Source of the DNA: Escherichia phage NHEP1
Strand: one strand, 5' to 3'
Length of the DNA stretch: 64,000 bases
Sequence record: PQ511146.1
Under the pieces are notes generated by a model. That model ran no database searches. It was given only the letters and a program-made list of their open reading frames with translations, and was not told where the DNA came from. A program made the position numbers and the translations under genes. Positions 1,036-2,842 of the stretch are shown here, piece by piece. The stretch's first letter is position 1. Each line of letters begins with the position of its first letter.

Positions 1036-1233
1036 TTATTTTTTATTAAACCAGTGGTTGATCTGGCCTTTTGTCAGGGCGCAACGATTAAGCTGTTGCC
1101 GGGTGTAGCTCTGACCGCGACGGAATTTATAAAGGCCTTGCCCGTTGTTGATGGTTACGTCCACCTGGCAAATCATTTGATCGGTGACGGCCTGGCGAGT
1201 GTTGCGACGTACTTTAATTCCGTAGGCGTTCAT
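1036..1233 (-). CDS. hypothetical small basic protein (65 aa)
   Basis: ATG with GAGAGGA SD; R/K/Q-rich. Confidence 0.55.
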   Translation of the reverse strand: MNAYGIKVRRNTRQAVTDQMICQVDVTINNGQGLYKFRRGQSYTRQQLNRCALTKGQINHWFNKK

Positions 1234-1285
1234 GATTTTTATCCTCTCTGTTAATTAGTGTGGTGTTGTTCACCTTGCGAGGATA

Positions 1286-1313
1286 AGAATAACAGAACTA
1301 TCCGAGCTGTCAA
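1286..1313 (-). promoter_or_regulatory. sigma70-like promoter (TTGACA-16-TATTCT)
   Basis: consensus -35 upstream of gene 1036..1233. Confidence 0.3.
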
Positions 1314-1633
1314 CCATTAGTTAGAATTATTTTTTGGGCAGAATTCTCCAGCCGCCGCCACTGCCAGGTTAACCATCATTTTTTCGTACTCTTCTTTATG
1401 TTCCAACGCTCCCGCCATAGCCTTTTCAACCAGGGCGATAGCCTCAGCGTCATTAATCGCTACATTTTCCAGGGGGGATCCTATTACCTTTCATTTTTGT
1501 ACCTCTTCTTCAGTTGTTGCCTACCCTGCATAGGCCCACCAGGTTTGCAAGCCTTCATTCTCCCCTACCTGGTCAGTTAGGTCCTGCCAGGCTGGCCCCG
1601 CCAGGTTGCAACGGTTAGCGCATCAGGTTAGAA

Positions 1634-1647
1634 TTTTTTTTTTTTTT
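1634..1647 (+). repeat. homopolymeric T14 tract
   Basis: 14 consecutive T seen in sequence, immediately upstream of a TTGACA hexamer (possible UP element). Confidence 0.9.
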
Positions 1648-1654
1648 GAAAGTG

Positions 1655-1683
1655 TTGACAGCGGCCCCGCCAGGTGGCACAAT
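1655..1683 (+). promoter_or_regulatory. candidate plus-strand promoter (TTGACA-17-CACAAT) with upstream T-tract
   Basis: consensus -35, weak -10; no downstream ORF, would drive a non-coding transcript. Confidence 0.3.
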
Positions 1684-1754
1684 ATACCTATCGAAAGGAC
1701 GGCAGGCACCGGTGACGGGGGAGACAACCACCGGGGATGGGCGCTGCATAAAAT

Positions 1755-1773
1755 GAGAACGGTTATCATTATC
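1755..1773. promoter_or_regulatory. Fur-box-like site (GATAATGATAACCGTTCTC on minus strand)
   Basis: 11/11 contiguous match to the left half of the E. coli Fur consensus GATAATGATAATCATTATC, 16/19 overall. Confidence 0.35.
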
Positions 1774-1890
1774 ATTTAAAAATTTATGCAAAAAATCCTT
1801 GCTCTCTTTGTCCTGTGTGATACTATAATAACAAGCCGGGGCAACAGGGGCCGGGAGACAATCACCGGGGGTGCCTGTTATTCTGCAAAC

Positions 1891-1907
1891 GAGAATGATT
1901 ATCATTC
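1891..1907. promoter_or_regulatory. Fur-box-like perfect palindrome GAGAATGATTATCATTC
   Basis: 7-bp inverted repeat GAATGAT/ATCATTC; 14/19 to Fur consensus. Confidence 0.35.
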
Positions 1908-2029
1908 AAAATTCTAAATGAGAACTTCTCGCATTTCATAAATTTAATTAGCATGCTAATTACCTACCGTGACAATTCTATATAAAATAATACCTCCTTA
2001 AGTATTTCCATATACAAATTTTAAAAATC

Positions 2030-2210
2030 CATTTCCGAAAACGAAAAATCGCTTTCGTTCCCAAAAATTTCAGGTCGAGCGCCGGAACGATTTCCAGAAA
2101 ATCTGATTCAGAAAACGAAAAACAGATCGAGTACTGAGAAATTTATCGAGAAAAATTTTCAGAAAATTCAATCTTTGAAATGAAAAACAGATCGAGTACT
2201 GAGAGAGATG
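2030..2210. repeat. A-tract rich array with 23-bp perfect direct repeat GAAAAACAGATCGAGTACTGAGA (2117-2139 and 2182-2204)
   Basis: direct repeats 65 bp apart plus repeated GAAAACGAAAAA motifs; iteron-like. Confidence 0.6.
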
Positions 2211-2512
2211 TGCCTAAACTTCCTGATAATGATGGGCTTATTGTTATAAAAGGCCAGAAGTAAGTTGGGAAAGTTCTGGTAGATGGGTGAGAGTGTGTGC
2301 GGAAAATCTGGAACGGTGATTTGAAGTACGGTGCGAATGATAGAATGAGTAGCGCAGCTTATCGTGCCTGTCTTGAAAAAATCCATTTTAGTTTTCGATC
2401 CATTTTCTGATTTTCTAAGAATTTTAAAATATCCGACTAGGTAAAATATCAAAAGGAGGAAATCTATTTTAGAAACCCTCCTTATACTTGATGTGCCAGG
2501 GATTTTCAAGTA

Positions 2513-2842
2513 TCAACTATCTTTGTTTTTAGGCTTGTACATGCGTAGAGGTATAGTTTTTATAACACTCCATCTCCCCAGCCCTTCCCAGTTCCAGTTG
2601 TGGGCATGGTACCCGGTTATGCATGCACTGCTGGCGTGATCATAAGCATAAGAGAACGCTATGCGTAACAAACGAGGCCAGTCTTTCCATGGTTGTGGTC
2701 CGTAAGCTTTTCTCCAACACCGACACAAACTAAATGTCTCAAGAATAGGCAGGATAACAAATCCATACACCGCCACCAGAATGGTCAGCGCAATGATTGT
2801 CAGGAATACATACCCTGCAGTTGAAATAATGATCTCTGTCAT
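2513..2842 (-). CDS. hypothetical membrane protein (109 aa)
   Basis: ATG with AGGGGA SD; hydrophobic N-terminal helix; ATGA overlap with upstream gene. Confidence 0.55.
   Translation of the reverse strand: MTEIIISTAGYVFLTIIALTILVAVYGFVILPILETFSLCRCWRKAYGPQPWKDWPRLLRIAFSYAYDHASSACITGYHAHNWNWEGLGRWSVIKTIPLRMYKPKNKDS

Follow-up and report, generated by a model that had tools for sequence, protein, structure and literature searches.

Fur boxes are textbook bacterial operators, and those of Escherichia coli at fecI, fhuF, entC and iucA are built on a 19-bp box with a 7-1-7 core, boxes overlapping one another at an offset of 6 bp. We describe here boxes of the same build in Escherichia phage NHEP1 (PQ511146.1), a virulent coliphage of the rV5/FV3-like Vequintavirus type. 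The stretch of DNA analysed, 64,000 nucleotides long, is referred to below as the window, and its positions 1634–1925 comprise two paralogous plus-strand units, each consisting of a promoter, a short leader and a cluster of Fur boxes. Chromosomal Fur operators usually cover the −35 and −10 elements, whereas the phage boxes lie about 57–80 bp past the predicted transcription starts, in non-coding DNA of a virulent phage; moreover, in relatives the phage boxes form arrays phased at 29 bp, unlike the chromosomal operators. Host Fur boxes on phage DNA are known from temperate phages, and there only in front of cargo genes: Fur-regulated sitABCD is carried on lambdoid coliphages (PMC6969025), and a Fur-regulated Shiga toxin 1 on a temperate phage is among the cases cited within PMC2189734. 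In both of these instances, the box controls a host-benefit gene from its own promoter in lysogens. Here, by contrast, there is no regulated open reading frame (ORF), the phage is strictly lytic and the boxes belong to a conserved non-coding cassette. Searches of the accessible literature on Fur boxes in lytic phages, on this region and on the rV5 transcriptome returned nothing pertinent, only sitABCD on lambdoid prophages. The operator is of a known type; its setting and architecture are new.

Short promoter-driven non-coding units linked to Fur boxes are also found at RyhB and PrrF, and PrrF1 and PrrF2 lie in tandem, as do the phage units. In RyhB and PrrF, however, the box overlaps the promoter and the RNA has an intrinsic terminator, whereas in the phage the box follows the RNA, no terminator is present, and there is neither sequence nor Rfam similarity to the bacterial RNAs.

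The sequence-only reading had singled out two Fur-like sites, a minus-strand GATAATGATAACCGTTCTC and a perfect palindrome, and both are upheld. The first, at 1755–1773, is the sole match in the 64 kb to GATAATGATAATCATTATC at three or fewer mismatches, the expected number being 0.01; the second is the 7-1-7 inverted repeat GAATGAT-T-ATCATTC at 1893–1907. A position weight matrix (PWM) for Fur, a palindromic 19-mer with the consensus ATTGATAATCATTATCAAT, was obtained by expectation maximisation with random starts from 12 DNase-footprinted E. coli K-12 regions (Chen et al. 2007, PMC2189734, Table 3) extracted from NC_000913.3, phage sequence not being used. Leave-one-out scores of the 12 footprinted sites average 18.5 bits (range 9.4–25.2). 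The top four matches in the window start at 1888 (23.7 bits), 1752 (21.6), 1758 (20.7) and 1894 (15.0), with the best match elsewhere in the window at 14.8 bits and the maxima of Markov-simulated 64-kb sequences at 14.6 ± 2.0. The phage sites are the best in the window, stand above background and score like strong authentic sites, at or above those that have been footprinted. The refuting outcome named in the sequence-only reading, PWM scores no better than background, was clearly not obtained. The pairs 1752/1758 and 1888/1894 agree with the geometry of Fur clusters, whose overlapping members are shifted by 6 (or 3) bp against one another (PMC2189734). At fecI, the footprint ATATGAGAATGGTTATCATTAC is nearly identical to the phage box, and phage AATGAGAATGATTATCATT matches TATGAGAATGGTTATCATT of the same footprint.

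At least 120 bacterial genomes, from many phyla, contain the exact 19-mer AATGAGAATGATT[AC]TCATT. Among the matches listed, the first ORFs away from it belong to TonB-receptor Plug (14), Fe3+-binding SBP (9), FUR (7), ZnuA (5), Lys/Orn siderophore oxygenase (4), Peripla_BP_2 (3) and FTR1 (2), which is the classical Fur regulon. A tblastn search revealed no Fur homologue encoded in Vequintavirinae or Stephanstirmvirinae genomes, and the binder would therefore be a host protein. We infer from these comparisons that the phage palindromes are operators of the host Fur, which would bind them. It is improbable, in our view, that they are instead the operators of a phage-encoded DNA-binding protein that resembles or mimics the specificity of Fur, host Fur itself being irrelevant. 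Such a protein could account for the symmetric departure from the textbook consensus that is common in phage boxes (TGAGAAT...ATTCTCA), and most neighbouring phage genes do fall in families of unknown function, but the same variant occurs in the footprinted fecI site, and diverse bacteria have the exact 19-mer in front of fur, of TonB-receptor genes and of genes for iron transporters. Furthermore, an identical box is found across subfamilies, in unrelated contigs of 33–59% GC and in an Aeromonas phage, where a co-evolving pair of protein and operator would be expected to drift. The unrelated contigs have no gene beside the box in common, and no shared binder gene among them, which argues for a conserved host binder and not a co-transferred phage protein.

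As had been suggested as a check, conservation in relatives was examined, and the box proved to be the most conserved element of the locus. Over 16 phage lineages, its 19-mer is 95% conserved, and the stretches of 30, 60 and 95 nt upstream of it are 75%, 51% and 42% conserved, respectively. In distant blastn comparisons, only window positions from about 1851 to 1938 are kept in other genera, at 80–90% identity. Those loci contain a conserved module, which was recognised in Certrevirus, Seunavirus, Mydovirus, Henunavirus, Avunavirus, a Serratia phage, Phapecoctavirus (Stephanstirmvirinae) and Aeromonas Plateaulakevirus. Its order is a small plus-strand ORF (sometimes), promoter P1 leading into an RNA of about 95 nt (RNA-A), a TGTAAAGA-nn-TGTAAAGA repeat, promoter P2, a second leader (RNA-B), one to five Fur boxes spaced at 29 bp, AAAAATTTTTTCGC with three to four long iterons ending GATCGAGAACC, and short repeats. 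The boxes of these modules score 16–27.5 bits, and a single box only is present in PVP-SE1, Hena1 and Av-05. In the rV5 lineage, a second, diverged RNA-B-plus-box unit stands in place of RNA-A, and the homology of the two units is still visible in the related locus L058. An exact 20-mer, TGAGAATGATT[AC]TCATTCAA, is found also in the unrelated uncultured phage contigs, among them L020 and L025 with four-box arrays at 26–38 bp spacing and L036 with a promoter, box and ribosome-binding site in succession.

The occurrence of near-perfect Fur operators in virulent phages, conserved above their surroundings, would mean that the host iron status feeds the lytic programme, and the conservation of the box across lineages suggests that lytic phages read that status. 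We suggest, tentatively and from sequence comparison, that a portable host-Fur-operator cassette may be common to lytic phages from several lineages that are not related to one another (Vequintavirinae, Stephanstirmvirinae, Aeromonas Plateaulakevirus and the uncultured phages of 33–59% GC). Through it, the iron sensor would gate early transcription or replication at a non-coding hub, and in the rV5 lineage the cassette may have been coupled to small RNAs of a new family, whose loop is GAGACAAYCACC.

Several elements that accompany the module in other phages were also noted. RNA-A, which is absent from the window, has its own strong promoter (...ACGCCACCCCACGGCGAAAAGGCGGGGCTAACGTACCGGG...GGTCGGAAGGTGGATCGCCGGTAGTTCG), and its conservation is very high among Vequintavirinae genera and in Phapecoctavirus (L005 and L003, both 1322–1415; L004, about 1330–1425; L012, about 1385–1480). 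Complementarity within it is of a pseudoknot-like kind (CGCC/GGCG and CCCC/GGGG), and Rfam gave no match to it. In most genera, RNA-A and P2 are separated by a conserved direct repeat, TGTAAAGA-nn(n)-TGTAAAGA (L003 and L005, both 1425–1446; L004, 1437–1458). The Klebsiella phage BIS47 (Mydovirus) has a second non-coding hub of about 1.8 kb at 102.1–104.0 kb (L187), in which Fur-like boxes at L187 positions 1430, 1578 and 1924 (24.4, 17.9 and 16.8 bits) lie beside promoter-like sites.

Within the window, the two tandem units recognised in the sequence-only reading are borne out, at a spacing of about 134–136 bp (Table 1). They are related through two repeat families, D4 (1719–1739 and 1853–1873, 90% identical) and D5 (1751–1783 and 1887–1919). 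The leader core that had been described as shared, GGGAGACAAYCACCGGGG, is present in both, at 1719–1736 and 1853–1870, and the sequence GAGAAYGRTTATCATT common to both units has exactly two copies, at 1755 and 1891; two matches were obtained in 0 of 100 shuffles. P1 is kept in FV3, WalterGehring, L049 and L053, with a predicted start near A1690. P2 was missed by a simple consensus scan because its −35 matches at three of six positions only; it has a conserved homologue in the P2 of other genera, which in eight of them has a −35 of TTGCAA, TTGATC or TTGACC, a spacer of 16–17 nt and a −10 of TATATT or TATTAT. The earlier suggestion of tandem small transcription units with operator sites fits these data, in that conserved promoters lie at a constant distance from a hairpin with moderate covariation support. 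The T14 tract that had been placed beside the promoter is indeed there, at 1634–1647 with TTGACA following at 1655–1660, but it is not conserved, close relatives having A6T5 or A4T6. It is at most a strain-level A/T-rich upstream element outside the conserved design. A separate observation concerns the spacers: four 17-mers resembling GGCCCCGCCAGG(T)TGCA lie between 1533 and 1679 (at 1533, 1580, 1594 and 1663), one of them being the GC-rich spacer of P1, and P1 and P2 of other genera have similar GC-rich spacers (GGCCCGGCGGGGC).

Table 1. Coordinates of the tandem promoter–leader–box units and adjoining elements in the window
Feature	Position	Strand	Description
Promoter-like TTGCAA-17-TAGAAT	1606–1634	+	Just 5' of the T tract; consensus match only
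T14 tract	1634–1647	+	Placed like an A/T-rich UP-type element 5' of the P1 −35
Promoter P1 (sigma-70 type)	1655–1683	+	TTGACA, 17-nt spacer, TG, CACAAT (extended −10); 10/12 consensus positions
Unit 1 leader, diverged RNA-B paralogue	1690–1751	+	Core GGGAGACAACCACCGGGG at 1719–1736; both ends predicted
Fur-box cluster 1	1752–1776		Overlapping 19-mers at 6-bp offset: 1752–1770, 21.6 bits; 1758–1776, 20.7 bits
Promoter P2	1799–1829	+	TTGCTC, 16-nt spacer, TG-a-TACTAT(AAT); predicted start near A1833
Unit 2 leader (RNA-B family)	1833–1887	+	Predicted imperfect hairpin, conserved loop GAGACAAUCACC; core 1853–1870; covariance-model match 1841–1887
Fur-box cluster 2	1888–1912		1888–1906, 23.7 bits (window best); 1894–1912, 15.0 bits; contains the 7-1-7 repeat
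Degenerate third box AATGAGAACTTCTCGCATT	1917–1935		6.7 bits; 29 bp past box 2, the period of the arrays in other genera
Iteron-like direct repeats	2024–2204		Core GAAAACGAAAAAcaGATCGAGTACTGAGA and variants; families D1 and D3; downstream of the units

The region had been taken to be free of ORFs. This is not strictly so, since an ATG-initiated minus-strand ORF of 96 amino acids at 1615–1905 spans the two units and is annotated as hypothetical in FV3 (ORF182) and WalterGehring. Four close relatives have the ORF intact, and it is annotated in the records of some; nevertheless, that the region encodes this protein is exceedingly improbable. The variable columns are distributed 13/14/14 over the three codon positions, in-frame stops occur in a relative at 89% identity (L053 has two), and indels in the A/T tracts are not multiples of three and shift the frame. 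We conclude from these three observations that the ORF is not a gene. In addition, it has no Shine–Dalgarno sequence and is absent in other genera. The region is non-coding, and genome records leave it empty or fill it with a spurious ORF, a point that bears on annotation.

The RNA-B leader has a defined position relative to both promoter and operator. In the eight genera, the sequence AT(A/G)GCG, the predicted 5' strand of the outer helix, starts 6 nt past the −10, and about 6 nt separate the end of the 3' strand (CCCGCTAT and variants) from the Fur box. The apical loop GAGACAAYCACC is nearly invariant. When the outer helix is anchored by hand, 97 of 104 cells are paired on the plus strand, with A-U/G-C exchanges at three positions; the plus strand is favoured by its G-U pairs, since 93 of 104 cells pair on the minus strand. 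A covariance model seeded with three sequences identified 22 instances, the match at 1841–1887 of the window among them. In the structure-guided alignment from this model, which is fitted to the proposed structure, 84% of cells pair, compared with 36–49% in slid controls, and both sides change in 6 pairs, compared with 2.7 ± 0.9 in shuffles. In the second unit of rV5-type phages, the predicted start (about 1833) falls inside the ancestral 5' strand and the helix is shifted (GGCA/UGCC or AACAGG/CCUGUU). Searches of Rfam gave nothing relevant at E values up to 10 for window positions 1200–2700 or up to 1 for nine related loci, and the ToxI antitoxin repeat of phiTE/ToxIN gave no match at up to 14 mismatches of 36. 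The RNA-B leader family is apparently undescribed so far.

Three copies of the 17-nt RNA-B core, GGAGACAATCACCGGGG, none with a Fur box, are present in an unrelated phage contig of 46.8 kb, and the leader may therefore be a functional RNA itself. In the mini-units of this contig (L051, reverse strand, about 715–775; L055, 1758–1812 and, on the reverse strand, about 2820–2880), a −10 box and GGAGACAATCACCGGGG are about 25 nt apart, and a T run follows about 10 nt further on; the mini-units look like genes for small RNAs (sRNAs) of about 50 nt. If RNA-B transcripts were free-standing sRNAs whose loop GAGACAAYCACC mediated an action on some target of the host or the phage, the role of the Fur boxes would be limited to setting their 3' ends or their level. 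The apparent covariation of the outer helix and the conservation of the loop would suit such a role, as would the mini-units, each with its own −10 and T run and no box. Yet 1200–2700 of the window has no terminator, the structure is of weak stability, and neither an Rfam match nor a target was identified. Nor is there similarity in E. coli genomes: blastn of 1690–1960 against 5,426 of them gave no match. We give the free-standing sRNA explanation little credence.

The geometry of the cassette is constant: a start, a hairpin of about 55 nt and a box, after which, in the window, the next promoter comes 23 bp on. This arrangement is best fitted by a roadblock or insulator. Repressors that act as roadblocks, such as PurR at purB and CodY and CcpA in Bacillus, likewise have their operator downstream of the start; unlike these, Fur is not known to work in this mode, which is proposed here from geometry only. 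In the reading that we favour, with confidence a little short of even, Fur-Fe2+ would act as a downstream roadblock or insulator on short plus-strand transcripts and so couple an early phage function to host iron. The locus would have arisen by tandem duplication of a conserved three-part cassette, made up of a sigma-70 promoter, a leader of some 55–60 nt and, directly behind it, one or more host Fur operators, the leader beginning at or near the foot of the imperfect hairpin whose loop is GAGACAAYCACC. In an iron-replete cell, Fur-Fe2+ dimers would occupy the boxes, which lie at about +57 to +80 from each predicted start, cluster 1 lying also 23–47 bp upstream of the next −35. Bound Fur would keep the plus-strand transcripts short, preventing them from running into the next unit or into the iteron-rich stretch 2024–2204. 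When iron is scarce, Fur would depart and read-through would follow, linking an early function at the hub, possibly the initiation of replication, to the iron status of the host.

A number of findings weigh against the roadblock reading. Neither box cluster overlaps the −35 or −10 of P1 or P2, as would be usual for repression by Fur, and the minus-strand promoter candidates that do overlap the boxes match the consensus at 8–9 of 12 positions, with the −11 A not conserved. A roadblock at about +60 would be an unusual use of Fur, which is an abundant protein. There is no plus-strand intrinsic terminator-like site in 1200–2700, and none after either leader. In single-sequence folding, the leader energies are ordinary, with z about −1 (range about 0 to −2.8), and RNAalifold yielded no consensus structure when 16 leaders were aligned with MAFFT without structural guidance, which is why the seeded covariance model and the hand-anchored helix were used. 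Finally, 1495–2512 contains no DnaA box (TTATCCACA, up to one mismatch), and the cumulative GC skew is monotonic across the locus, with no switch and no origin signal. An arrangement in which Fur represses a minus-strand promoter over box 2, TTGAAT-N18-CAGAAT, giving an antisense RNA to the leader in the manner of ColE1, was also considered; it was set aside because this promoter matches at 8 of 12 positions and about 5 of 12 lineages have lost its −11 A.

The boxes might alternatively act as a decoy, titrating host Fur as the phage DNA amplifies, while the promoters and leaders serve a separate function. Host iron uptake and iron-sparing functions would then be derepressed, supplying iron-dependent phage processes. 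The sites appear to be of the high-affinity type, arrays reach five boxes per locus, the second hub of BIS47 contributes more of them, and the FURTA assay relies on the titration of Fur by boxes cloned in multicopy (PMC1874648). With two to three sites per genome here, and a single box in PVP-SE1, Hena1 and Av-05, the sink would nevertheless be small. Fur is an abundant repressor. A sponge, moreover, does not require that the box be fixed in position right after the RNA-B hairpin, as is seen in every genus. On balance, we regard titration as unlikely.

Beyond the boxes, the stretch 1926–2512 has a GC content of 35% and contains two iteron-like copies of 55 nt (2085–2139 and 2150–2204, 78% identical) together with a related sequence at 2024–2070. 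In layout, these match the ...GAAAAnCGATCGAGAACC repeats, AAAAATTTTTTCGC...GATCGAGAACC, of other genera, and 2024–2204 may serve as an origin or a regulatory hub. ColE1 RNA II, the primary origin of T7 with its tandem promoters, and T4 oriF/oriG are transcription-activated or primer-RNA origins. They share with the phage locus one or two promoters directed into an AT-rich repeat stretch and a structured 5' leader; unlike them, the gap holding the phage units shows neither DnaA boxes nor a skew signal, and an origin role here is conjectural.

The replication start of these phages has been sought by skew without success: the genome map of rV5 has a box labelled 'non-coding', and the skew analysis in that work found no origin, only transcription-linked changes (PMC3606486). 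The present locus would bear on that search and, if host iron status is an input to the lytic programme, on the behaviour of rV5-like phages in therapeutic use where iron is limited, as in the gut, in blood and at sites of infection.

A link of the box with replication modules is hinted at by unrelated phages. In the uncultured phage contig L016, two Fur boxes of 24.1 and 22.8 bits, 29 bp apart, lie within 1219–1365 amid DnaA boxes, three of them perfect (TTATCCACA) and several degenerate, 5' of a T7 gp4-like primase-helicase module, a region that looks like an origin. Contigs of the L017 group have one box after two TGTGGATAA boxes, near a primase gene. These contexts, the adjacency of boxes and iteron-like repeats in all genera, and the regular 29-bp (or 26–28 bp) phasing, which suggests a higher-order complex, would be in keeping with Fur as an architectural host factor, acting as IHF or DnaA does at other origins and not as a repressor; the array would give structure to a replication origin or keep the AT-rich iterons free of H-NS-type silencing. 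Fe-Fur is known to relieve H-NS-type silencing at ftnA. This explanation is doubtful all the same, given that the rV5 skew analysis showed only transcription-linked changes (PMC3606486) and that the gap has neither DnaA boxes nor a skew switch.

Window positions 1250–2550 are 90–95% identical to FV3, rV5, ECP32 and about 100 other records. The units occupy a gap of about 1 kb (about 1495–2512) with small minus-strand early genes on its sides, every flanking gene being assigned in PHROGs to a family of unknown function. ARAGORN found neither tRNA nor tmRNA in the window or the related loci.

Two features at the borders of the gap may be mentioned. On one side, the minus-strand equivalent of FV3 ORF181 (start codon ATG at 1494; length in FV3, 177 nt) has a frameshift in the window, located in a homopolymer at 1472–1477 (G6 on the plus strand, C6 on the minus strand), and ends after 13 codons; its frame is picked up again as an ORF at 1418..1317. 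The frameshift may be either a sequencing error or real, as a pseudogene or a phase-variable tract. On the other side, directly past the stop of the gene 2513..2842, the minus strand at 2442–2483 forms a hairpin, AGGAGG...CCTCCT, followed by TTTTGATATTTT. This is likely to be a terminator, which would insulate the non-coding hub from minus-strand transcription upstream.

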